64,000 nucleotides of DNA. Source: a gamma proteobacterium endosymbiont of Trioza apicalis (lineage in GTDB: Bacteria; Pseudomonadota; Gammaproteobacteria; Enterobacterales; G022558485). The position numbers and the translations under genes are program-made. The stretch is taken from positions 154,603 through 218,602 of the forward strand of contig CP066222.1 in the NCBI GenBank assembly GCA_022558485.1. Reading direction: 5' to 3'. The notes under the pieces are model-generated. The model was not told the origin of the DNA and did no database searches. It worked only from the letters and a program-made list of their open reading frames with translations. Positions 5,228 to 61,008 of the stretch are shown one piece after another. The number at the start of each line of letters is the position of its first letter. Position 1 is the first letter of the stretch.

Positions 5228-5267
5228 TGTAAATTTAATAAATATATGTTAAATAATAATAAATTAA

Positions 5268-5643
5268 ATAAAGCTAACCTTTAAGCCGGGTTCTGTCTAG
5301 GACAGTCATTCATCTAGGATAGCATTCACATACTAACTCAAGCGGCTCACCCAAGCTAAAGTACGGGTCATACAATAATAAGCTTTTATTTAGCCTTGCT
5401 CCGAGTGGAGTTTACAATGCCAATAATTGTTACCAATTATTCGGTGAGCTCTTACCACACCATTTCACCCTTACCTTTAATTTATTTTAAATTAATATAA
5501 TTTATGGCGGTTTATTTTCTGTTGCACTAGTCGTGAATTTTCACTCACCCAGGTGTTACCTGGCACTTTTACCCTATGGAGCCCGGACTTTCCTCAACTT
5601 ATTATATAAATTATAATAAAGCAGCGACTGTCTAGTTAACTTT
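5268..5643 (-). ncRNA. rnpB: RNase P RNA (M1 RNA, type A); ends approximate
   Basis: Reverse complement contains the universally conserved blocks AGGAAAGTCCGGGCTCCATAGGG, GTGCCAGGTAACACCTGGG, CGACTAGTGCAACAGAAA, GGTAAGGGTGAAATGGTGTGGTAAGAGC, AAACTCCACTCGGAGCAAGGC and ATCCTAGATGAATGACTGTCCTAGACAGAACCCGGCTTA. These are collinear with E. coli M1 RNA. The region is a conspicuous GC-richer island in an AT-rich spacer. Confidence 0.9.
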
Positions 5644-16029: not shown

Positions 16030-16173
16030 TTATTTAGAAGAAACTGTTAAATATAAACGACCCTTTGAACGACGACGTGATAAAATTTTTCGACCATTTT
16101 TTGTTAACATCCTATTACGATAACCATGTTTACGATTACGTTTTAATAAAGAAGGTTGGAAAGTACGTTTCAT
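16030..16173 (-). CDS. rpmH: 50S ribosomal protein L34
   Basis: Not in the ORF track because it is too short. Hand translation of the minus strand gives [47 protein letters not shown] (47 aa), nearly the E. coli L34 sequence. The stop codon is 13 nt before the rnpA start. Confidence 0.9.
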
Positions 16174-16353
16174 AAAACACCTGAAATTAAATATAAATAA
16201 ATAATTTATATATATCTTATTATAATAAAAATTATTTATTAAAAAAATAAATATTAAAAATATAAAAATATAATAAATATTTATAATATCATAAAATAAT
16301 AAATTATTAAAATATAAATATAAAAATTAAAATATAATTATATTAGTAATTCT

Positions 16354-18984: not shown

Positions 18985-19090
18985 GGGGGGTTGTATATTA
19001 TTAAATTTTTTTTATAAATCTGGTCAGGTCTGGAAAGAAGCAGCCATAATAAAATTAATTTAAATATAAACTTATACATAAAAACCCCCA
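18985..19090 (+). ncRNA. ffs: 4.5S RNA (signal recognition particle RNA); ends approximate
   Basis: GGGGGG at 18985-18990 pairs with CCCCC at 19085-19089 to close a long hairpin. The apex carries the SRP domain IV consensus TGGTCAGGTCTGGAAAGAAGCAGCCA (E. coli: CAGGUCAGGUCCGGAAGGAAGCAGCCA), including the GGAA tetraloop. Confidence 0.8.
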
Positions 19091-19141: not shown

Positions 19142-20104
19142 TTAAATTGATGAAATAATTACATTAGCTTTTTCTATAATATCTGAAGTATATGAAACCC
19201 TTAATTCTTCAATTAATGATAAAAACATTGATGCCTCAATTTTGTTAGCCTTCATTAAAAAAACTTTCTCTTCTAATAAATTTAACATTCCATAACGTGG
19301 ATTATCCATATTATCAGAAATATTTTTTTTTTTAAAAATAAATAAATCATTAAAATCCAATTTAAAAGTTATTTTATTATAACTCTTATAACTTCTTCCT
19401 ATTTTTTCTATAATAAAACCACGATTAAATTTTTTTCTAAAAGACCATATACCTTTAGATTTTAAAACAATATTCTTAATGGGATTAATTAATGTAGCTC
19501 TTTTAAATCTAGAAAAATCCACATAATCACTTATTGAAACACCAAGCATATTACAAAAATCCTCTATAGAAACAGTAAAATCTTTAACACCCTTAAATCT
19601 ACTTATTAATTCCAATATTCTCTTTTCATAACCACCTCTTAAAGATAATAATAATGTTATATCTATTTCTGAAAATCCAGAAGAATACTCAAGAAGATAT
19701 TTAGCAGCATCCTTATCCATTCTAATAAATAAAACACCATCTTCAAATAAAGCTTTACTTATTACAACAACCTTATTAAACATTTTTTTTTTAGGATCTT
19801 TTATCTCTAATATTTTACCCATAACTTTTGTGCCATCATATAAAGCTTTATATAAACCCTGCCTAGTTAAATGAAAATATTCTTCAAGATCTTTAGCATA
19901 ATATCTAAATTCAAAAATAATATCATTAGAAATAGAATTACTAAATTTTTCTTTATCTTGATTAGATTTTAAAGATTTAACTAAAAGTGTTATTAAATCT
20001 TGCTCTCTAGGTTTTAAATTCATACGGCTAGTAATTAATTGATGAGATTTTTTAACTGTAATTAAATTTTTCAAAATTTTCCTTATAAAATAACAATTAT
20101 TCAT
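19142..20104 (-). CDS. Hypothetical protein with a plasmid iteron-type replication initiator (Rep_3 / RepE / pi-like, double winged-helix) motif pattern
   Basis: 320-aa ORF on the same strand as rpoD. Its ATG lies 8 nt after the rpoD stop codon. Segments KSHQLITSRMNLKPREQDLITLLV, FRYYAKDLEEYFHLTRQGLYKALYDGTKVMGKILEI and FSEIDITLLLSLRGGYEKRILELISRFKG..FTVSIEDFCNMLGVS..DYVDFSRFKRATLINPIKNI follow the remembered Rep_3 profile pattern. Composition is balanced (not Ile/Lys/Asn-degenerate), so the ORF itself is very likely real. The family call is by eye only. Confidence 0.55.
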   Translation of the reverse strand: MNNCYFIRKILKNLITVKKSHQLITSRMNLKPREQDLITLLVKSLKSNQDKEKFSNSISNDIIFEFRYYAKDLEEYFHLTRQGLYKALYDGTKVMGKILEIKDPKKKMFNKVVVISKALFEDGVLFIRMDKDAAKYLLEYSSGFSEIDITLLLSLRGGYEKRILELISRFKGVKDFTVSIEDFCNMLGVSISDYVDFSRFKRATLINPIKNIVLKSKGIWSFRKKFNRGFIIEKIGRSYKSYNKITFKLDFNDLFIFKKKNISDNMDNPRYGMLNLLEEKVFLMKANKIEASMFLSLIEELRVSYTSDIIEKANVIISSI

Positions 20105-20112
20105 AATATATA

Positions 20113-22005
20113 TTAATCATCTAAAAAAGTACGTAATATATCAGATCTACTAGGATGACGTAATTTACGTAATGCTTTTGCTTCTATTTGACGAATGCGC
20201 TCACGAGTAACATTAAATTTCTTACCAACTTCTTCTAATGTGTGATCATTATTCATATCAATACCAAATCTCATACGTAAAACTTTAGCCTCTCTAATAG
20301 TTAAATCAGATAAAACATTTTTAGTAACAGATTTTAAACTCTCAGATGTGGCTAAATCTAACGGTAACTCTAACGTAACATCTTCAATAAAATCACCTAA
20401 ATTAGAATCTTCATCATCACCAACTGGTGTCTCCATTGATATTGGTTCTTTAGCAATTTTTAATATTTTACGAATTTTAATTTCTGAAATCATCATGCGT
20501 TTAGATAAATCCTCTGGAGATGGTTCATGTCCATTTTCTTGTAACATTTGACGAGAAATACGATTTAATTTATTTATTGTTTCAATCATATGTACTGGAA
20601 TTCGAATAGTGCGTGCTTGATCAGCAATAGAACGTGTAATTGATTGACGTATCCACCAAGTGGCATAAGTAGAAAATTTATAACCACGTCTATATTCAAA
20701 TTTATCAACTGCTTTCATTAAACCTATATTTCCTTCTTGAATTAAATCTAAAAATTGCAAACCACGATTAATATATTTTTTTGCAATAGATATAACTAAA
20801 CGTAAATTAGCTTCAATCATTTCTTTTTTAGCATTATTAATTTTTATAACACAAGTGGATATAATATTATTAATATTCTTTAATTCATTTAAACTTAAAT
20901 TTGTACTTTTTTCAATATCACGTATTTCTTTTAAATAAAAATATATATTTTTACTAAATTTATTTAATTTTTTTGACCATAACTCATTTTTTTCTAATAA
21001 AGAACCAAAAAACCCTATATTAATTTTATTTTTATACATTATTTTAATTAAAATTTTTTCAGGTAAATTACAAACTTTAATAAATAAATTAATAACTAAA
21101 TCTTCATAATAACAAACGCGATCAATTAACATACGAATATTATTAATAAAATATTCAAAGTATTTTGGTGTTAATTTAAATTGTTTAAAAATATTATAAA
21201 GATTGTTAATTTCTTTAAAAGAGTCAACATGATCACGACCATTAATACTAATTATAGATTTAGTAATATTATACTGCTTGCGTAATTCTGAAAATTTTTG
21301 ACAAGCTAAATTTGGATCTATATGATTATCAATATCTGCATCACTATTATTACAAGTTTCATTAAAAGAAAGATTATCTTTTTTTAGATTAATATTTTTA
21401 TTTTTAAAATTAACATTGCTCTTTATATTTTTATTAACTGATAATTTAAAATTATTACTAACAGAAAAAGATAAAATCTCTTTATTATTATTAAAATCAA
21501 TAAAACCAACAATAATATCAGAAAGACGTAATATACCAGCTTCAACACGCTCATATTGATCAATTATATAAGAAACAGATTTTGGGTACTTTATAACTAA
21601 ACGTTGAATTTGATTTATACCATCTTCAATACGCTTAGCTAACATTATTTCACCCTCACGAGATAAAAGATCAACAGTACCCATTTCACGCATATACATA
21701 CGTATTGGATCAATATTATATCCAACTTCAGAATCAATATTTAAAAGATTTTGACTAGATAATTCTTTAGTACTTTCATAAAAATTAGACAAACTCTCAT
21801 AATCTAATATAATATTATTAATATTTAATGTTTTTTCTAAAACTTTAATACCTGCATCATTAATTAATCTAATAATTTCTTTAATTTGCATAGACTCAAA
21901 AACATCATTAAGCAAATAATCATTAATATCTGAGAAGGTTAAATAACCTTTTTCTTTACCAAGAGTAATAAGCAATTTAAACTTATATTTTAAATTTTTA
22001 TTCAT
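20113..22005 (-). CDS. rpoD: RNA polymerase sigma-70 factor
   Basis: 630-aa ORF with highly conserved regions 2-4 ([58 protein letters not shown]; [15 protein letters not shown]; [30 protein letters not shown]). Downstream of dnaG. Confidence 0.95.
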
Positions 22006-22071: not shown

Positions 22072-23826
22072 TTATTTTTTTTTTGATAATATTTTATTTA
22101 TAAACCATAATTCCCTTTTTTCTTCTGTTGTTAAACCATAAATTCTATCATTATTAATTAATAAATCTTGACGTAAAATAAGTAATGAGTTAAATAAACT
22201 CAAGAGAGTTTCAATAAAAGTTTTTTCAATAAACTCTTTAGAAATTAAATAGTCAAAATTAGATAAAAACTTTAATATATTAAAATTTTTATCATCACGA
22301 TAATATTCTAATAATTGAGAAGTATTTAAAATAGTATTAGATTTACAAATTTTAACTAATTCTGTAAATAATTTCAAACCAGGCAAAGCATCTTTTTCAA
22401 TACCTTCAAAAGAAGGTACTAAAGTAAATAAAAAAGGATTTTGTAATAATAAACCTATTAATAAACGCATTATTGTTCTTTTAAAAACTAATAGAGATGG
22501 TATATTTAATTTAGTTGGTAATTTTAATAAAACTCTTTCTAAATGCATAGGATCTAAAATACCCAATTTAAATCCAAGCTTTCTACGTATATAAAAACGC
22601 AAAACATTACCTGGAATTTTATTTATTAAAGGTAATAATAAAGAACTTAATTTAACACGACCATCAATGCGACTTAAATCAACCTTAGATAAAAATGTAT
22701 TAAATAAAAAAGTGGACAATGAAGTATAATTTTTAATAAGTTTTTCAAAAGATTTCTTACCTATCTTCCTAATTAAAGTATCAGGATCTTGTCCTTCTGG
22801 TAAAAATATAAAACATAATTGTTTATCATCTGTTAAAAAAGGTAATACTTTTAATAAAAACCTCCAAGAAGCTAAACGTCCAGCACAATCACCATCATAA
22901 CAACAAATTATACGATTTGTGTAAAAATACATTAATTTAATATGATTAATAGTTGTCGAAGTACCTAAAGAAGATACTGCATAATTAATTCCAAATTGTG
23001 TTAAAGATATAACATCCATATAACCCTCTACTAATAATAATTGAGGTAATTTAGAAAATTTTTTTTGTATTTCATATAATCCATACAAAAGAGAGCCCTT
23101 ATCAAAAACAGTTGTTTTAGGTGAATTAAGATATTTTATATTATTATCATCATTAATGGCGCGACCCCCAAAAGCTACTACTTTACCATATGTATTTAAA
23201 ATAGGAAAAATAATACGATCTTTAAGTTTATCATAAAAATTAATACCATCATTTGAACAAATACTACCTAATTTATGAATCAAAGAAGAACTAATTTTAT
23301 TTTTTAAACAAAATTGTTTCAATTTATTTAAATTAGATGATGAATAACCAATTGAAAAAACTTTAATTATTTTTTCGTTTAAACCCCTATTTTTCAAATA
23401 ATCTCTAGCACGAATTCCGTATTTAGATTTTAATGTTTTTACATAAAATTTTTTTAATTTTTCTATTAAATAAAACAGATTTTTTTTTTCAATATATATT
23501 TTTTTATTTTTATTAAATATAGGTGAATCATATATTACTTTAACACCATAATAAGATGATATTTCTTTAATAGATTCAACAAAAGTTGAATTATCATATT
23601 TTATTAAAAAATCAATAGCATTTCCATGTATACCACAACCAAAACAATAAAAAAATTGCTTTTCTTGACTAACTGTAAATGATGGTGTTTTTTCATTATG
23701 AAAAGGACATAATATTTTAAAATTTTTACCAATTTTCTTTAATTTTATTTTAAGATTAATAATATCAACTATATCAGTTCTTAATAATAAATTATTTATA
23801 AAATGATAAGAGATTTTTTTAAACAT
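22072..23826 (-). CDS. dnaG: DNA primase
   Basis: 584-aa ORF with a zinc-ribbon (CPFHNEKTPSFTVSQEKQFFYCFGCGIHGNAIDF) and a TOPRIM domain (LLVEGYMDVISL, CYDGDCAGRLA). Lies between rpsU and rpoD. Confidence 0.95.
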   Translation of the reverse strand: MFKKISYHFINNLLLRTDIVDIINLKIKLKKIGKNFKILCPFHNEKTPSFTVSQEKQFFYCFGCGIHGNAIDFLIKYDNSTFVESIKEISSYYGVKVIYDSPIFNKNKKIYIEKKNLFYLIEKLKKFYVKTLKSKYGIRARDYLKNRGLNEKIIKVFSIGYSSSNLNKLKQFCLKNKISSSLIHKLGSICSNDGINFYDKLKDRIIFPILNTYGKVVAFGGRAINDDNNIKYLNSPKTTVFDKGSLLYGLYEIQKKFSKLPQLLLVEGYMDVISLTQFGINYAVSSLGTSTTINHIKLMYFYTNRIICCYDGDCAGRLASWRFLLKVLPFLTDDKQLCFIFLPEGQDPDTLIRKIGKKSFEKLIKNYTSLSTFLFNTFLSKVDLSRIDGRVKLSSLLLPLINKIPGNVLRFYIRRKLGFKLGILDPMHLERVLLKLPTKLNIPSLLVFKRTIMRLLIGLLLQNPFLFTLVPSFEGIEKDALPGLKLFTELVKICKSNTILNTSQLLEYYRDDKNFNILKFLSNFDYLISKEFIEKTFIETLLSLFNSLLILRQDLLINNDRIYGLTTEEKRELWFINKILSKKK

Positions 23827-23890: not shown

Positions 23891-24106
23891 TTAATAAATA
23901 CGAAAACGTCTATTATTTTCACGAGTTATTTTTTTTGAATATCTTTTTATTGCAGATATTTTAGCACGCTTACGTATTGTAGTTGGTTTTTCATAAAATT
24001 CACGACGACGAACTTCTGATAAAATACCTGCTTTTTCACAAGAACGTTTAAAACGACGTAACGCTAAATCAAATGGTTCATTTTCACGTATTTTAATAAA
24101 AGGCAT
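23891..24106 (-). CDS. rpsU: 30S ribosomal protein S21
   Basis: 71-aa [52 protein letters not shown], near-identical to E. coli S21. Confidence 0.95.
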
Positions 24107-26831: not shown

Positions 26832-26847
26832 TTTTAATAATTTATGA

Positions 26848-26926
26848 ACGGAAGTGGCGAAATTGGTAAACGCACCAGATTTAGATTCTGGTATTTAATA
26901 TGCGAGTTCAAATCTCGCCTTCCGTA
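26848..26926 (+). tRNA. leuW: tRNA-Leu (anticodon UAG), with a reduced variable arm
   Basis: ACGGAAGTGGCGAAATTGGTAAACGCACCAGATTTAGATTCTGGTATTTAATATGCGAGTTCAAATCTCGCCTTCCGTA. The anticodon loop is TTTAGAT and the variable region is only about 10 nt. First gene of a Leu-Gln-Met cluster resembling the E. coli metT-leuW-glnU operon. Confidence 0.85.
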
Positions 26927-26938
26927 GTAATAAATAAA

Positions 26939-27012
26939 TGGGGTATAGCCAAGTTTGGTAAGGCAACGGGTTTTGATCCCGTCATACCCAGGTTCAAATC
27001 CTGGTACCCCAG
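26939..27012 (+). tRNA. tRNA-Gln (anticodon UUG)
   Basis: TGGGGTATAGCCAAGTTTGGTAAGGCAACGGGTTTTGATCCCGTCATACCCAGGTTCAAATCCTGGTACCCCAG is collinear with E. coli tRNA-Gln(UUG). Confidence 0.9.
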
Positions 27013-27042
27013 ATAATATATTTATTTTTAAAAAAATATAAA

Positions 27043-27116
27043 AGCTACGTAGCTCAGTTGGTAAGAGCGCAGCACTCATAACGCTGTGGTCACAGGTTCA
27101 ATTCCTGTCGTAGCTA
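27043..27116 (+). tRNA. metT: Elongator tRNA-Met (anticodon CAU)
   Basis: AGCTACGTAGCTCAGTTGGTAAGAGCGCAGCACTCATAACGCTGTGGTCACAGGTTCAATTCCTGTCGTAGCTA matches E. coli metT (GGCUACGUAGCUCAGUUGGUUAGAGC...GGUCACAGGUUCGAAUCCCGUCGUAGCC) rather than ileX or the initiator. Confidence 0.85.
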
Positions 27117-27163
27117 CATAAAAAATTTTTGTAATTAATTATAAAAATTTGAATAATAAAATA

Positions 27164-27248
27164 AGGAGAAGATGAGATTTGAACTCATGAAAAGTTTCCT
27201 TTTGCTGGTTTTCAAAACCAGTGCTTTAAACCACTCAGCCACTTCTCC
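27164..27248 (-). tRNA. tRNA-Ser (anticodon UGA)
   Basis: Reverse complement reads GGAGAAGTGGCTGAGTGGTTTAAAGCACTGGTTTTGAAAACCAGCAAAAGGAAACTTTTCATGAGTTCAAATCTCATCTTCTCCT. It is a type II tRNA with a long variable arm and anticodon loop TTTGAAA. Confidence 0.85.
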
Positions 27249-27296
27249 AGCAAAATAAATATATAAAATAAAATTCAAATATTGATATTAAATTAG

Positions 27297-27370
27297 TACG
27301 TTCTAATGGATTTGAACCATTGACCTTCACCACGTCAAGATGATGCTCTAACCAACTGAGCTAAGAACGC
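27297..27370 (-). tRNA. tRNA-Val (anticodon GAC)
   Basis: Reverse complement reads GCGTTCTTAGCTCAGTTGGTTAGAGCATCATCTTGACGTGGTGAAGGTCAATGGTTCAAATCCATTAGAACGTA, collinear with E. coli tRNA-Val(GAC). Confidence 0.9.
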
Positions 27371-27478
27371 ATATTTATATATATGTATATTATATTAAAT
27401 AACAATAATTAAGTTAATTAAATTAAATTAACATTTATTAAATAAACAAATTATTATTAATTATTATATAATACACAT

Positions 27479-28270
27479 ATGACGGAGTTTGTAATGGAAA
27501 TATTATTAAATTCATCTATGTGGATAGAATTAATAACTTTAATAATATTAGAAATTGTGCTAGGTATTGATAATATAGTATTTATTGCAATTATAACAGA
27601 TAAATTAATAATTGAACATCGTGATAAAGCTAGATTTATAGGTTTAACTTTAGCATTATTTATGCGTTTAGGATTATTATTATTAATTTCATGGCTTATT
27701 AACTTAAAAAAACCATTATTTAATATAGGTATTTATAATTTTTCTAGTAAAAATATTATTTTAATAATTGGAGGTATATTTTTAATAATTAAAAGTACAA
27801 CTGAATTATATAAAAATATTAAAAATAAAAAAAAAATAAAAAAAAAAATTAAAAATAAAAATAAAAATTTTTGGATAACAGTAATTCAAATTATAATTAT
27901 TGATATAATATTTTCTATAGATACAATTATTACAGCAGTTGGTATAGTTAATAATTTAATAATTATGATATCAGCTATTATTATTTCAATGCCTATTATA
28001 TTATTTACATCAAAAACTTTAACATTTTATATTAATAAATATAAAAAAATAATGATATTATGTTTAATTTTTTTATTAATAGTTGGATTAAACCTTGTAG
28101 CTAATGGTTTTAATATCAAAATTCCTAAAAAATATTTATATATTATTATAAGTATTTTACTAATAATTGAATTTATAGATAAAAAATATATTTTTAAAAA
28201 TAAATTTAAATATATATTAAAATTAATAATTAATAAAATAAATTCACTTATTAAACATAATAAAAAATGA
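27479..28270 (+). CDS. TerC-family integral membrane protein (YgdQ/YoaE-like)
   Basis: 263-aa polytopic ORF. The N-terminal WIELITLIILEIVLGIDNIVFIAI and a second IIIIDIIFSIDTIITAVG repeat are the paired TerC-family motifs. Confidence 0.7.
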   Translation: MTEFVMEILLNSSMWIELITLIILEIVLGIDNIVFIAIITDKLIIEHRDKARFIGLTLALFMRLGLLLLISWLINLKKPLFNIGIYNFSSKNIILIIGGIFLIIKSTTELYKNIKNKKKIKKKIKNKNKNFWITVIQIIIIDIIFSIDTIITAVGIVNNLIIMISAIIISMPIILFTSKTLTFYINKYKKIMILCLIFLLIVGLNLVANGFNIKIPKKYLYIIISILLIIEFIDKKYIFKNKFKYILKLIINKINSLIKHNKK

Positions 28271-32147: not shown

Positions 32148-33551
32148 TTATTTATAGTTATAAATATTTGTATAATTATCAAAACGAGAACATTTTCCAT
32201 TAAAAATTAATCTTATAGTACCCATAGGACCATTACGTTGCTTACCAATTATTATTTCAGCAACACCTTTTAAATTACTATTTTCACGATAAACTTCCTC
32301 ACGATAAATAAACATAATTAAATCAGCATCTTGTTCTATAGAACCTGACTCACGAAGATCTGAATTAATTGGACGTTTATCAGAACGTTGTTCCAAACTA
32401 CGATTTAATTGAGATAAAGCTATAATAGGTACATTTAATTCTTTAGCTAAAGATTTTAAAGAACGTGAAATTTCAGATATCTCTAAAGTACGATTATCAG
32501 AAAGTGATGGAACACGCATTAATTGAAGATAATCAATCATAATAAGACTAAGACCGCCATGCTCACAAAATAAACGACGAGAACGCGTTCTTACTTCAGT
32601 AGGCGTTAAACCAGAAGAATCATCTACATATATATTACGTTTTTTTAATAAAAAAATCATAGTATTTGAGATACGAGCCCATTCCTCATTATTTAATTGA
32701 CCAGTTCGTATTTTATTTTGTTCAACACGAGATAAAGAAGATAACATACGTATCATAATTTGATCACTAAGCATTTCCAAACTAAAAATAAGAATAGGTT
32801 TTTTTACAAACATAGCTGCGTTCTCACATAAATTCATAGCAAAGGTAGTTTTACCCATTGAAGGTCTAGAAGCAATAATAATTAAATCAGATTTTTGAAA
32901 ACCAAATGTTTTTCTATCAAGATCTAAGTAACCACTGGAAACACCAGTAATATCATTTATTGGTTTTTTATAAACTTGTTCAATATTTAACATAGTACTT
33001 TCTAAAAGAAGATTAATATTTTTAGGTCCTATATTTTTTATAGTACGATTTTCTGCAATTTTAAATATTTTTGATTCAGCTAAATCTAATAAATCTTCAC
33101 TACTACGACCTTTAGGATCATAACCAGCATCAGCTATTTCATTTGCTACTAAAATCATCTTTCTAACTACTGCGCGTTCACGAACAATTTCAGCATAAGC
33201 ATATATATTAGCAATACTAGGGGTATTTTTCGATAATTCAGCTAAATAAGCGAATCCACCTACTGATTTTAATTCACCTGATTGTTCTAAAGATTCTGAT
33301 AGTGTAATTAAATCTATGGGCTTACCTAATTCATAAAGACATTGCATTTTATTAAAAATTTGACGATGAGATATATTATAAAAATCATTAACACTTATAC
33401 AATCAATTATACGATCCCATCGTTCATTATCTAACATTAAACCACCAAGTACAGATTGCTCAGCTTCTAATGAATATGGTGGAATTTTAAATTCTTTCAA
33501 TCTATTATTTCCAAAAATATTTACTTTTTTTATTTTCTTTTCAAAAGACAT
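32148..33551 (-). CDS. dnaB: Replicative DNA helicase
   Basis: 467-aa ORF with PPYSLEAEQSVLGGLMLDN, Walker A (ASRPSMGKTTFAMN), IMIDYLQLM and SQLNRSLEQRSDKRP. Confidence 0.95.
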   Translation of the reverse strand: MSFEKKIKKVNIFGNNRLKEFKIPPYSLEAEQSVLGGLMLDNERWDRIIDCISVNDFYNISHRQIFNKMQCLYELGKPIDLITLSESLEQSGELKSVGGFAYLAELSKNTPSIANIYAYAEIVRERAVVRKMILVANEIADAGYDPKGRSSEDLLDLAESKIFKIAENRTIKNIGPKNINLLLESTMLNIEQVYKKPINDITGVSSGYLDLDRKTFGFQKSDLIIIASRPSMGKTTFAMNLCENAAMFVKKPILIFSLEMLSDQIMIRMLSSLSRVEQNKIRTGQLNNEEWARISNTMIFLLKKRNIYVDDSSGLTPTEVRTRSRRLFCEHGGLSLIMIDYLQLMRVPSLSDNRTLEISEISRSLKSLAKELNVPIIALSQLNRSLEQRSDKRPINSDLRESGSIEQDADLIMFIYREEVYRENSNLKGVAEIIIGKQRNGPMGTIRLIFNGKCSRFDNYTNIYNYK

Positions 33552-36240: not shown

Positions 36241-37239
36241 ATGATTAATTTTAATATAAAAAAAATAAAAAAAAATATATATTCCTGTTATTTATTATTT
36301 GGCAATGATTACTTTGTAATACAAAAAAAAAAAAAACAAATTTTAAAAACAGCTAAAATATATAATTATCATGAAAACTATAATATATATATATATATAA
36401 ATACAGATTGGGAACCAATATATAAAATATGTCAAGAAAAAGATTTATTTTACAAAAAAAAAATCATAATATTAAATATTATAGATAATAATTATATAAA
36501 TATTAATAATAAATTATATAATTTAATATCTTTTTTAAAAGAAAACATATTATTAATTATACATGAAAATAAATCAATATTAAATTTTAAAAACTATAAT
36601 TGGTTTAAAGACTTTTATAAAAAAATAATTATAATAAATTGTAAAACACCTAAAAAAAAAAATTTTTACAATTGGATAATAAAATATACTAAAAAAAAAA
36701 AATTATTATTTGATATAAATAGTTATAAAAATATTTATTACAACTATAAAGGAAATTTATCAAACTTAAGCCAAATGCTAACCAGATTAAAACTAAATAA
36801 TAAAAATAAAAAAATATCATTAAAAAATATAAATAATGAATTAAATAACATTACAAATTTTACACCATATAATTGGATAACAACATCATTAAATAAAAAT
36901 ACAAAAAAAGCATTAAATATTTTAAATAAATTGAAATTAAAAAAAACAAATCCAATTTTATTATTAAGAATAATGCAATATTATATATTAAATATATTAG
37001 AAATAAAAAAAAATAAAAATAAGTTTTTTTTAAACAAAAAATATATAAAAAATAAATTAAATTTAATTAAAATTTCAAAAAATATTTCATTAATACAATT
37101 ACATTATGCAATAAAAATAATGACAAAAATAGAAATAAACATAAAAAAAAATAAAAATTGTTTTACATATATTAATTTAAAAACATTAACTTTATTAATT
37201 TGTAATGAATTAAAAATATTAAAAATAATAAATATTTAA
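36241..37239 (+). CDS. holA: DNA polymerase III delta subunit (highly diverged)
   Basis: 332-aa ORF directly after leuS, as in E. coli (lptE is missing). Recognisable islands are CYLLFGNDYFVIQ (E. coli AYLLLGNDPLLLQ), TDWEPIYKICQEKDLF and FTPYNWITTSL..NTKKALNILNKLKLKKTNPILLLRIMQ (E. coli FTPFHWVDALL..KSKRALHILQQLRLEGSEPVILLRTLQ). Confidence 0.7.
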   Translation: MINFNIKKIKKNIYSCYLLFGNDYFVIQKKKKQILKTAKIYNYHENYNIYIYINTDWEPIYKICQEKDLFYKKKIIILNIIDNNYININNKLYNLISFLKENILLIIHENKSILNFKNYNWFKDFYKKIIIINCKTPKKKNFYNWIIKYTKKKKLLFDINSYKNIYYNYKGNLSNLSQMLTRLKLNNKNKKISLKNINNELNNITNFTPYNWITTSLNKNTKKALNILNKLKLKKTNPILLLRIMQYYILNILEIKKNKNKFFLNKKYIKNKLNLIKISKNISLIQLHYAIKIMTKIEINIKKNKNCFTYINLKTLTLLICNELKILKIINI

Positions 37240-43795: not shown

Positions 43796-44287
43796 ATGAA
43801 TAAAAACTACCCCATACCTATACATAAACTTATAGAAAAAAAAAATATAAACACTAATACAAATTTGATAAAATTAAAAAAAAAAGCTTTTATAATAAAT
43901 AAAATTAATAAAAATATTAAAAAATTTATACCAAAATATATCAAATTAGATTATCGTATTATTAAAATTAATAAAAATATATTAATATTAGAAACAAATA
44001 ATATAAATTGGAAATTAAATTTAATTTCTGAGAAAAAAAAACTTTTAAATAAATTAAAATATATAATACCTTCAATTTCAAATATTACAATTAAAATAAA
44101 TAAAAATTTAAAAAAAACTAAAAATTTTTTAAATAAAAATAAAAATAAAATTAAAAATATAAAAAATTTAGAATTAAAAAAAAAAAAATTAAGCAAAAAA
44201 AGTGCAGAATATATTAATAATATAACAAAATATAGTGAAAAAAAATTAAAAAAAATAATAAAAAGATTTATAAAATTAGCTAATTAA
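43796..44287 (+). CDS. Hypothetical Lys/Asn-rich protein; possible DUF721/DciA-like helicase-operator remnant (speculative)
   Basis: 163-codon ORF divergent from secA. It is too long to be a chance ORF even in this composition (rough estimate of stop frequency above 0.1 per codon). A GGA lies 9 nt upstream of the ATG. The central segment FIPKYIKLDYRIIKINKNILILETNNINWKLNLISEKKKLLNKLKYIIPSISNITIKI resembles the DUF721 core pattern (hydrophobic strand, 'awa..L' helix, repeated-hydrophobic C-terminal strand). The call is from memory of the family profile only. Confidence 0.3.
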   Translation: MNKNYPIPIHKLIEKKNINTNTNLIKLKKKAFIINKINKNIKKFIPKYIKLDYRIIKINKNILILETNNINWKLNLISEKKKLLNKLKYIIPSISNITIKINKNLKKTKNFLNKNKNKIKNIKNLELKKKKLSKKSAEYINNITKYSEKKLKKIIKRFIKLAN

Positions 44288-49657: not shown

Positions 49658-50305
49658 TTTTTTTTATTTTTTTTTCCATAAAATTAAATTTATATTTATA
49701 ATATTAAATTTTTATATAATTTTATAATTTTTTTTCTATATTTTTTTAAAACAATTACGTATACTTTTAATTTTTGGTTTAATATATAATAAATTTAACT
49801 TTAATTGAACAATAGGCCTTTTAAATGGATTTAAGATATTTTTTATTAAAGATATATTTTTTAATTTATTACTTTTAAATTTTAATTTATCATTATTATT
49901 TTTAAAATTATTATTCATAACAATATTATCCAATTTTTAATATAATTATTATATAATTTATAAATAAATATTTTCAAATAAAAATATTATATCATAAATA
50001 ATTTTATTATAAAATATATAAAACTAAATTAAAAAATTTAATTTTTTTTATAAATTTATATAAAAATAATTACAAAAAAATTTTTAGTAAATTTTTTAAA
50101 ATTAAATATAATAAATTATTAAAAATTTATTACATTTTTTAAAAAAAAATAATATAATAAAAAATACAAAAATTAAATTTTAATATTCTTTTATTATATT
50201 ACTTAATAAATTATTATTTTAAACAAAATTTAATATTAATTAATAAAATAATTTTTATTATATTAAAATAATAAAAATTATATTACAAATAAAATAAATT
50301 AAAAC

Positions 50306-50333
50306 TTGCAAATTATTAAATTTAATATATAAT
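50306..50333 (+). promoter_or_regulatory. Candidate sigma-70 promoter for tRNA-Gly (TTGCAA-16 nt-TATAAT)
   Basis: TTGCAA at 50306-50311, a 16-nt spacer and a perfect TATAAT at 50328-50333. The predicted start is about 7 nt before the tRNA 5' end at 50347. The G/C-containing -35 is rare in this spacer. Confidence 0.4.
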
Positions 50334-50346
50334 ATATTATATAAAA

Positions 50347-56283: not shown

Positions 56284-57375
56284 ATGAATTATAAAATATT
56301 AGCAAATAAGTGGAGGCCTAAAACATTTAACGATGTAGTTGGCCAAGAACATGTAATAAAAGCTCTTATAAATAGTATTAATTCAGGTAAAATACATCAT
56401 ACATATTTATTATCAGGAACAAGAGGTATTGGAAAAACTACCATAGCACGTTTATTAAATAAATCATTAAACTGCGAAAATGGAATAACAGTAAACCCAT
56501 GTAATAAATGTATAAATTGTCATGAAATAAACCATGATAAATTTATAGATTTTATTGAAATTGATGCAGCATCAAAAACTAAAGTAGAAGATATTAAAGA
56601 AATTATAGATAATATTGAATATACTACAAGCAGAGGTAGGTTTAAAATTTATCTTATAGATGAAGTCCATATGTTATCTAAATATAGCTTCAATGCATTA
56701 TTAAAAACATTAGAAGAACCACCTAGTCATGTTAAATTTATATTAGCAACAACAAATCCAAATAAGATACCCAACACAATTTTATCTAGATGTTTACAAT
56801 TTTATTTAAACGCTTTTAATCCTATACAAATTTATAAACAAATTGAAAAAATATTAAAATTAGAAAATATTAAGGCAGAATCATTAGCTATAAAATTAAT
56901 AGCGAAAAATGCCAATGGTAGTATGAGAGATGCTTTAAATATTACAGATCAAGCTATAGCTATAAACAAAAAAAAAATAAAAGTAGATACGATACAAATA
57001 ATGTTAGGTTTAATAAATATTAATCAACCATTAACATTATTAGAAATATTAATTAAAGCTAATAGTGAAATGTTACTTCTACAACTAAACAAATATAACT
57101 TAAATGGAGTACAATATAAAAATATAATAATAGAAATGTTATCATTATTACATCATATTGCAATAAAAAAAATAACAAATAATACAAAAACAAAAAAACC
57201 TAATAGATTACAAAAATTAATTTCAGAATTTTCCTTAAAAGAAATACATTTTTTTTATAAAATACTCATAAAAGGAAATAAAGAATTAAAATATGCTAAA
57301 AATTATAAAATGGGAGTAGAAATGATATTACTACGTATAATAACCTTTCATCCTAGAAATAAAAATAATAAATAA
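56284..57375 (+). CDS. dnaX: DNA polymerase III clamp-loader subunit, gamma-length (domains I-III only)
   Basis: 363-aa ORF with LANKWRPKTFNDVVGQEHV, Walker A (GTRGIGKTTIARL), the zinc module (CENGITVNPCNKCINCHEI), DEVHMLS and SRC (LSRCLQF). It stops where E. coli tau continues for about 280 more residues. Confidence 0.9.
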   Translation: MNYKILANKWRPKTFNDVVGQEHVIKALINSINSGKIHHTYLLSGTRGIGKTTIARLLNKSLNCENGITVNPCNKCINCHEINHDKFIDFIEIDAASKTKVEDIKEIIDNIEYTTSRGRFKIYLIDEVHMLSKYSFNALLKTLEEPPSHVKFILATTNPNKIPNTILSRCLQFYLNAFNPIQIYKQIEKILKLENIKAESLAIKLIAKNANGSMRDALNITDQAIAINKKKIKVDTIQIMLGLININQPLTLLEILIKANSEMLLLQLNKYNLNGVQYKNIIIEMLSLLHHIAIKKITNNTKTKKPNRLQKLISEFSLKEIHFFYKILIKGNKELKYAKNYKMGVEMILLRIITFHPRNKNNK

Positions 57376-60935: not shown

Positions 60936-60970
60936 AATACTTATAAATAAACTATTAAATTAAATTAATT

Positions 60971-60996
60971 ATTAATTAATTAATTAATTAATTAAT
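60971..60996. repeat. Tetranucleotide microsatellite (ATTA)6, self-complementary
   Basis: ATTAATTAATTAATTAATTAATTAAT, read directly from the sequence. It sits in the 73-nt lipB-smpB spacer. Confidence 0.8.
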
Positions 60997-61008
60997 AATT
61001 AATTTAAT

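Follow-up and report, generated by a model that had tools for sequence, protein, structure and literature searches.

A plasmid-type Rep_3 initiator gene behind rpoD in the chromosome of a co-primary symbiont of Trioza apicalis, a candidate replacement for DnaA

In a stretch of 64,000 nt (the window) from the chromosome of the co-primary symbiont of the carrot psyllid Trioza apicalis, we observed that the operon rpsU-dnaG-rpoD is followed by a fourth gene, here called rep, which codes for a replication initiator of the plasmid-type Rep_3 family. The closest relatives of this gene belong to Arsenophonus plasmids, whereas rep itself lies in the chromosome, has adopted the base composition of its host, is under selective constraint and has lost the cis elements that accompany its relatives. 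We tentatively regard its product as a candidate for the chromosomal initiator in place of DnaA. Our sequence data comprise the window and ~18 kb of flanking sequence from Logan contigs, out of a chromosome of ~253 kb. The genome (253 kb, 20.4% GC, accession CP066222) was described previously (PMC11842425), and the symbiont was named 'Ca. Triozidicola socius' in a later paper. In a supplementary table of the genome paper rep is listed just as 'replication initiation protein', and neither a plasmid origin nor dnaA is discussed (PMC11842425).

The initial annotation, made from the letters alone, had recognized in rep an iteron-binding plasmid initiator with two winged-helix domains. All three peptide segments quoted for this are present in the translation, and the homology holds at the level of both profile and predicted structure. 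The Pfam profile Rep3_N (PF01051), which covers the first winged-helix domain (WH1), matches residues 16-167 with 60.5 bits (E=3.1e-16, profile positions 1-140 of 141), compared to a gathering cutoff of 22.4 bits. For Rep3_C (PF21205) no match was found in the protein at E<=1, NCBIfam yielded a weak RepM match only, and sequence searches of the PDB returned zero matches with either the single protein or a profile. An AlphaFold2 model was built from 22 homologs (pLDDT 79). The top 49 Foldseek matches of this model in the PDB are all RepE54, pi, RepA-WH1 or MSBI1.176 Rep, with E-values down to 4e-7, and its alignments to whole RepE54 and pi chains extend over ~235 columns with target TM-scores of 0.63-0.70, the best of them being iteron-bound complexes. 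Judged by sequence and modeled fold, the product of rep belongs to the Rep_3 initiators with two winged helices and carries a further domain of three helices at its C-terminus, arranged as follows:

19142..20104, minus strand: rep, open reading frame (ORF) of a Rep_3-family initiator, 320 codons from ATG; the likelier coding sequence is 19142-20074, 310 amino acids
19604..20059, minus strand: WH1 domain, residues 16-167 (PF01051; pLDDT mostly 73-93)
19343..19603, minus strand: second winged-helix domain (WH2), residues ~168-254 (predicted fold, alignment to RepE54 and pi)
19145..19300, minus strand: C-terminal three-helix extension, residues 269-320 (model helices 269-282, 288-301 and 307-318)

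Compared to the closest plasmid homolog (P0002), the identity is 86% over residues 31-145 and 83% over residues 146-254. The C-terminal extension is 61-65% identical to P0002 and P0003; it is common to the Arsenophonus subfamily and absent from RepE and pi.

Next, we analyzed the chromosomal position of the gene. The neighboring features are:

20075..20112, minus strand: rep leader, a remnant of the plasmid, with a -10-like TATATAT right after the rpoD stop and AAGGA at 20084-20080
20113..22005, minus strand: rpoD (sigma-70), identified by ORF and Pfam domains, with an intact C-terminus (...RTFLDD, then stop)
22072..23826, minus strand: dnaG (primase)
23891..24106, minus strand: rpsU, the first gene of the rpsU-dnaG-rpoD operon
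18999..19068, plus strand: ffs, the RNA of the signal recognition particle, convergent with rep (Rfam RF00169, 45.4 bits, gathering score 40)

The operon order rpsU-dnaG-rpoD is thus retained, with rep added after rpoD without a terminator, and the gene sits between this operon and ffs-trxB in the chromosome, not on a plasmid as is usual for Rep_3 initiators. A Sodalis-like contig, which carries the best DnaG match (P0145), shows the usual end of the operon, where rpoD is followed by a convergent mug. Since the order rpsU-dnaG-rpoD-rep-(ffs)-convergent trxB was found in 23 contigs from many sequencing runs, the locus is not an assembly artefact. Six of these loci were compared base by base and are 99.93-99.94% identical to the window, with one synonymous single-nucleotide polymorphism in rep. 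A chimeric assembly or a contamination was rejected, given the identical context in more than 20 independent assemblies and a composition of rep that equals that of the host. The ffs gene itself is shortened (70 nt compared to a model of 97 positions) and scores barely above the Rfam gathering score.

The ORF had been placed 8 nt behind rpoD, with its ATG at 20104-20102 and the rpoD stop (TAA) at 20115-20113, and these coordinates turned out to be exact. With ~9% stops per random codon at this composition, the chance of 320 open codons is ~1e-14. The description of the gene as fused to the 3' end of the operon is correct with regard to its position directly behind rpoD, but not in the sense of a translational fusion, as the ORF is separate with either of two possible starts. 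The likelier start is a TTG at 20074-20072, which is preceded by a Shine-Dalgarno sequence (AAGGA, 20084-20080) and extends the gap to rpoD to 38 nt. We favor it because both the identical 310-aa product of NCBI (P0001, annotated as 'replication initiation protein') and the family alignment begin there; the conservation across 22 homologs starts at ILKNLITVKK.

Searches for relatives confirmed the idea of a captured plasmid initiator and refined the donor family to the iteron replicon of Arsenophonus plasmids. The closest proteins are encoded on a Logan contig (79% amino acid identity), in Arsenophonus nasoniae and Ca. A. triatominarum (74-75%) and on another contig (63%). More distant are other Arsenophonus and Phlomobacter copies (40-53%) and plasmids of Photobacterium, Vibrio and Shewanella (~32-45%). 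The best match in PLSDB (75%) comes from the complete circular A. nasoniae plasmid paPv3 (94,250 bp; NZ_CP123507.1, WP_026824025.1), whose initiator gene is located near parA/parG, HU and ssb genes. We observed that the plasmid relatives carry a common set of cis elements. Two of the loci (L007 and L009) have 4 or 5 iterons of 22 bp upstream of rep with the core (C/A)TGACATT(G/A)GA, while two iterons are present in a truncated contig (L008) and a single one is left in L011. Right after the last iteron follows a DnaA box (TTATCCACA or a variant with one mismatch; approximate positions L007:120-135, L009:2040-2050, L008:50-60 and L011:9810-9820), and an inverted-repeat operator, ATGACATTTTT...AAAATGTCAT, spans the rep promoter, clear in L007, L008 and L011.

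In the symbiont the similarity to plasmids found by blastn (76-77% of nucleotides) is confined to the coding sequence, reaching from just past the rpoD stop (up to 20112 for L007) to the rep stop. From the alignment of the junction we can see that ~35 nt of the plasmid leader were kept, with the ribosome-binding site and the -10-like TATATAT among them. Gone are the -35 element, the operator inverted repeat, the DnaA box and the iterons of the relatives; rpoD coding sequence stands in their place, so that the 3' end of rpoD occupies the position where a Rep_3 initiator has its autorepression operator. On the other side the gap of 204 nt between rep and trxB is filled by ffs, and no plasmid DNA remains 3' of rep. 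No terminator-like hairpin was found between rpoD and rep. For lack of space a promoter would have to lie inside rpoD, a terminator is missing, and the plasmid -35 and operator have disappeared; rep is therefore likely co-transcribed with dnaG and rpoD, its transcription starting within or passing through rpoD. With the -35 and the operator lost, the autoregulation of rep is lost as well.

For evaluation of selection and timing we analyzed the composition and the divergence of the gene. The GC content of rep is 22.0%, equal to the gene median of the window, compared to 10-11% in decaying genes and ~5% in non-coding DNA. The hand counts of G+C on which the initial annotation had built its argument for purifying selection (14/60 at 19501-19560 in rep, 4/60 at 36241-36300) are both exact, and purifying selection is supported by the balanced GC content, the open frame, the retained invariant residues and the ratio of non-synonymous to synonymous substitution rates (dN/dS) of ~0.1. 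In detail, Nei-Gojobori dN/dS values against the closest plasmid genes are 0.08-0.13 with dS saturated, and a three-point estimate for the symbiont branch is ~0.13. All family-invariant residues are retained; at positions conserved to at least 85% the only departures are F68Y, D89Y, L180I and E182D, of which three are conservative and D89Y is common to the subfamily of rep. Taken together, rep is very probably functional. Two other genes of the window, holA (36241-37239, GC 10.9%) and a 163-aa ORF (43796-44287, GC 10.2%), lie far below the median of 22%, which suggests much weaker constraint or decay in progress.

The GC content at third codon positions (GC3) is 11% in rep, 4-11% in its neighbors and 23-29% in the plasmid copies. 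As GC3 has fallen to the level of the host, rep has been resident long enough to equilibrate. The amino acid branch lengths on the side of the symbiont are 0.15 for Rep, 0.47 for RpoD and 0.58 for DnaG, and in a search of 5.8 billion proteins the best non-self matches were 58-60% identical for RpoD and none exceeded 53% for DnaG. Because Rep is closer to its relatives than the sigma-70 of the symbiont is to any sigma-70, we infer that rep was captured horizontally and late in the history of the lineage. The top DnaG matches are Sodalis-allied, not Arsenophonus, which on so long a branch is weak evidence; this affinity suggests a transfer of rep between lineages.

We then turned to the question of dnaA. 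The slot of dnaA next to rpmH had been reported as empty, and indeed rpmH (16031-16174, minus strand) has pyrB upstream instead. A six-frame translation of the window contains no DnaA signature motif, and the window harbors no cluster of DnaA boxes, with a single TTATNCACA compared to 4.9 expected. The genome paper is silent on both dnaA and dnaC, as are its eight supplements (PMC11842425), and the row 'Replication initiation' of the supplements lists only 'DNA primase, replication initiation protein' (PMC11842425). From the published gene inventory and the window together we consider it quite likely that dnaA is truly absent from the genome. Other parts of the replication machinery are retained in the window, namely dnaB, dnaG, dnaX and holA:

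32148..33551, minus strand: dnaB, replicative helicase (Pfam DnaB and DnaB_C)

By analogy to pi, RepA and TrfA, DnaB is the helicase that a Rep_3 initiator would have to load. The dnaX gene (56284-57375, plus strand) codes for 363 aa only, comprising domains I-III (the length of gamma) without the tau C-terminal region, which in E. coli DnaX binds DnaB and the alpha subunit of the polymerase.

As monomers, Rep_3 proteins bind iterons with both WH1 and WH2, melt an AT-rich element next to them and recruit DnaB; as dimers they sit on an inverted repeat and repress the rep promoter. As the operator is lost, the repression function of the dimers has no target here, and an initiator function would need binding sites elsewhere in the chromosome. 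On this basis we propose a model in which a domesticated plasmid Rep serves as chromosomal initiator and replaces DnaA. A Rep_3 gene of an Arsenophonus-type iteron replicon would have entered the chromosome of the symbiont after its rapid divergence had begun, and would then have been trimmed to the coding sequence and a leader of ~35 nt, with loss of the iterons, the DnaA box, the operator and the -35. Expressed by read-through from rpsU-dnaG-rpoD, Rep would act in trans and site-specifically on an origin elsewhere in the ~253-kb chromosome, where it may recognize repeated sites and open up an AT-rich stretch, so that first DnaB and then DnaG and DNA polymerase III are recruited. In this way it would take the place of DnaA, which is unlisted in the published gene inventory. 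We consider this the best-supported reading, but hold the full model tentatively, as somewhat short of an even chance.

Several observations weigh against this model. No iteron array, of the ancestral type or any other, was found next to rep, neither in the window nor in the flanks of ~18 kb, and the 64 kb contain no switch of the GC skew. By sequence, the search for iterons covers ~82 kb of the genome and that for dnaA the window. Since the plasmid relatives carry a DnaA box beside their iterons, the ancestral replicon was probably DnaA-assisted. Furthermore, a promoter scan gave 50 sites compared to 53.6 expected, which is uninformative at 78% A+T, so that an independent transcription of rep is possible, and searches with RpoD and DnaG found no close sister genome for a test of conservation.

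Alternatively, Rep could be an accessory or secondary initiator beside an intact DnaA and oriC elsewhere in the chromosome, firing a second origin or backing up DnaA, as integrated plasmids in E. coli can do. The ~170 kb outside the sequence search for dnaA and the DnaA box beside the iterons of the plasmid relatives would fit such a role, as would the published statement that 'most' replication genes are present, the missing ones being unlisted (PMC11842425). Against it stand the position next to rpmH without dnaA, the silence of the paper and all eight supplements on this gene, and the one TTATNCACA in 64 kb where 4.9 are expected, and we regard an accessory role as unlikely.

The initial annotation had advised looking for iteron clusters at a switch of the GC skew; the window contains no such switch, and neither the window nor the flanks yielded iterons. 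We searched the window for the ancestral iteron patterns (ACAWYWYMTGACATT, or two CTGACATT cores 22 nt apart) and obtained the same counts as in shuffled sequences. The exact ancestral core MTGACATTRGA is absent from every symbiont locus that we fetched, and general repeat finders, TRF and a scan for clustered k-mers revealed only AT-rich low complexity and coding repeats in the window. Copies of TTACGTAA in the 3' end of rpoD were rejected as iterons, being Leu-Arg codons. Iterons directly beside rep were rejected as well, as the downstream gap of 204 nt holds ffs and the upstream 8-38 nt are plasmid leader. All sizeable gaps of the window consist of RNA genes, with the exception of a stretch of 688 nt at 49658-50345. 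One of the gaps, 662 nt at 26832-27493, was rejected as an origin since five tRNA genes lie at 26848-27370, and another is filled by the following gene:

5266-5643: RNase P RNA

The stretch 49658-50345 is the largest non-coding stretch (GC 5.8%) and is located upstream of rpsL, between rpsL and tRNA-Gly. It contains no ORF, no match to an RNA family, no defined repeats and no skew switch, apart from a weak AT periodicity of 20-23 nt at 50208-50301. Without defined repeats or a skew switch it was rejected as an origin; possible explanations are gene decay, an extended promoter region or an unwinding element.

The strand asymmetry of the window is strong and uniform. Measured on the plus strand over the whole window, the GC skew at third positions amounts to -0.53 for genes of the minus strand and -0.05 for those of the plus strand. 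The minus strand carries 68% of the coding bases and behaves as the leading strand throughout. Such an asymmetry argues for a fixed origin and for replication through the window from right to left. As there is no skew switch, any origin must lie tens of kb away from rep, unlike in every plasmid relative; an origin outside the window is implied, probably beyond its right end. Near this end a simple repeat of the (TTAA)n type at 60960-61005, between lipB and the next gene, is where all three fetched Logan contigs stop (at 60983), and it is an assembly breakpoint, not a biological boundary. About 3.9 kb past the right end, a 362-aa ORF in the position of rpoA, for which no Pfam match is on record, carries ~12 tandem copies of a 9-nt repeat (TAATAAATT-like; L022:3722-3860) at its 3' end; translated, they would give an (N-K-F)n tail.

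The missing iterons might also be explained if Rep acted in trans on a separate small replicon, or on an unassembled piece carrying only iterons, in the way pir can be supplied in trans for the R6K gamma-ori. In accordance with this, no iterons lie near rep, and the assembly was not circularised despite 6000x coverage, for which the authors suspected a missing piece or a linear chromosome (PMC11842425). The contigs of similar abundance that the authors re-examined were eukaryotic ones only (PMC11842425), though, no contig with iterons and without rep occurs among the relatives, and a gene-poor plasmid kept by a genome of 253 kb would be unparsimonious. A separate replicon therefore appears improbable to us.

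We give similarly little credence to an exaptation of Rep as a DNA-binding regulator or nucleoid protein that no longer initiates replication. Such a change would agree with a constrained protein that lacks cognate repeats in its vicinity; genomes of this size have few transcription factors, and Rep dimers are repressors on plasmids. Both winged-helix domains, however, remain 83-86% identical to those of active plasmid initiators and retain all family-invariant residues, the own operator is lost and no palindromic target was detected. That rep is a non-functional, not yet decayed remnant of a plasmid integration is very improbable: the capture is recent relative to the age of the lineage and the flanking plasmid DNA is already deleted, but while dS became saturated and GC3 went from 23-29% to 11% the 320 codons stayed open at a dN/dS of ~0.1, the GC content remained at the gene median, far above decaying genes (10-11%) and non-coding DNA (5%), and the deletion bias spared exactly the coding sequence and the ribosome-binding site.

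The model of a chromosomal Rep initiator can also be regarded as a natural case of integrative suppression, with the sole chromosome (253 kb) of an obligate symbiont replicated by a Rep_3 initiator from a co-resident Arsenophonus plasmid; we see this as plausible, though a little less likely than not. As far as can be judged from its sequence, a plasmid initiator has here been integrated into the chromosome and kept functional. Its capture would have followed the loss of dnaA or have been a step that permitted this loss, the synthesis of Rep would be tied to primase and sigma-70 instead of being autoregulated, and the origin would lie far from rep, possibly in the region that blocks closure of the assembly.

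How replication starts in insect endosymbionts that have lost dnaA has been debated ever since their first genomes were sequenced. Proposals include control by the host and initiation that depends on recombination, and to our knowledge no replacement initiator has been named so far. In full-text literature searches no plasmid-type initiator turned up for any symbiont lacking DnaA. With rep there is a testable candidate, and its role can be tested with existing data. If the model is true, Rep would be the first replacement initiator to be identified in an insect endosymbiont lacking DnaA, and would exemplify the horizontal capture of a functional gene by a genome that was already reduced. The locus also shows that even a strongly reduced genome under AT drive is still able to take up a foreign gene and fix it. 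A plasmid of Arsenophonus is the probable type of donor, and this genus has been reported from other psyllids. In addition, the locus illustrates the rewiring of a plasmid gene, which lost its operator and is now probably under an operon coupling translation, priming and transcription.

Compared to known systems, rep is an ordinary member of Rep_3 by sequence and fold and departs from the family in three points of context: it has no adjacent iterons, no operator and no plasmid location. RepE of mini-F, pi of R6K and RepA of pPS10 and pSC101 belong to the same Pfam family (WH1) and have the same two-domain fold; rep differs from them by an identity of only 13-16%, the extra C-terminal domain, the lack of adjacent iterons and operator, and its chromosomal location. 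The Arsenophonus initiators (paPv3, A. nasoniae DSM 15247, Ca. A. triatominarum and Ca. Phlomobacter fragariae) fall into the same subfamily as rep. With the paPv3 group rep shares 74-75% of amino acids and 76-77% of nucleotides over the whole coding sequence, as well as the region of the TTG start and the C-terminal extension. The genes of this group, however, are found on plasmids or plasmid-like contigs together with iterons, DnaA box, operator and adjoining parA/parG, whereas rep has none of these and sits in a chromosomal housekeeping operon.

In E. coli, integration of an F, R1 or R6K replicon rescues dnaA mutants, which is known as integrative suppression. Similarly, plasmid-derived origins (oriN/RepN) can drive the chromosome of Bacillus subtilis (PMC3245932, PMC4207641). 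In both systems an integrated plasmid initiator takes over without DnaA, but they are laboratory constructs or selections in which the plasmid origin adjoins rep. In the symbiont the situation is natural and the gene fully ameliorated, only rep itself is visible, and the takeover is proposed. RctB of Vibrio is a plasmid-derived initiator of a secondary chromosome. It is one of the initiators of chromids, a concept that also appears in bioRxiv 10.1101/264945. Such plasmid-type proteins were domesticated to serve an essential replicon, and their action is linked to the cell cycle. These initiators serve a second replicon beside a DnaA-driven chromosome and have their origin adjacent, whereas rep lies on the only known chromosome of the symbiont, apparently without dnaA. 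Wigglesworthia and Carsonella are further insect endosymbionts without DnaA, and the loss of dnaA has been described in Blochmannia (PMC4389277). All three resemble the symbiont of T. apicalis in having a tiny AT-rich genome with no dnaA reported. In the literature that we searched no replacement initiator was identified for any of them; unlike these genomes, the one analyzed here offers a concrete candidate initiator.

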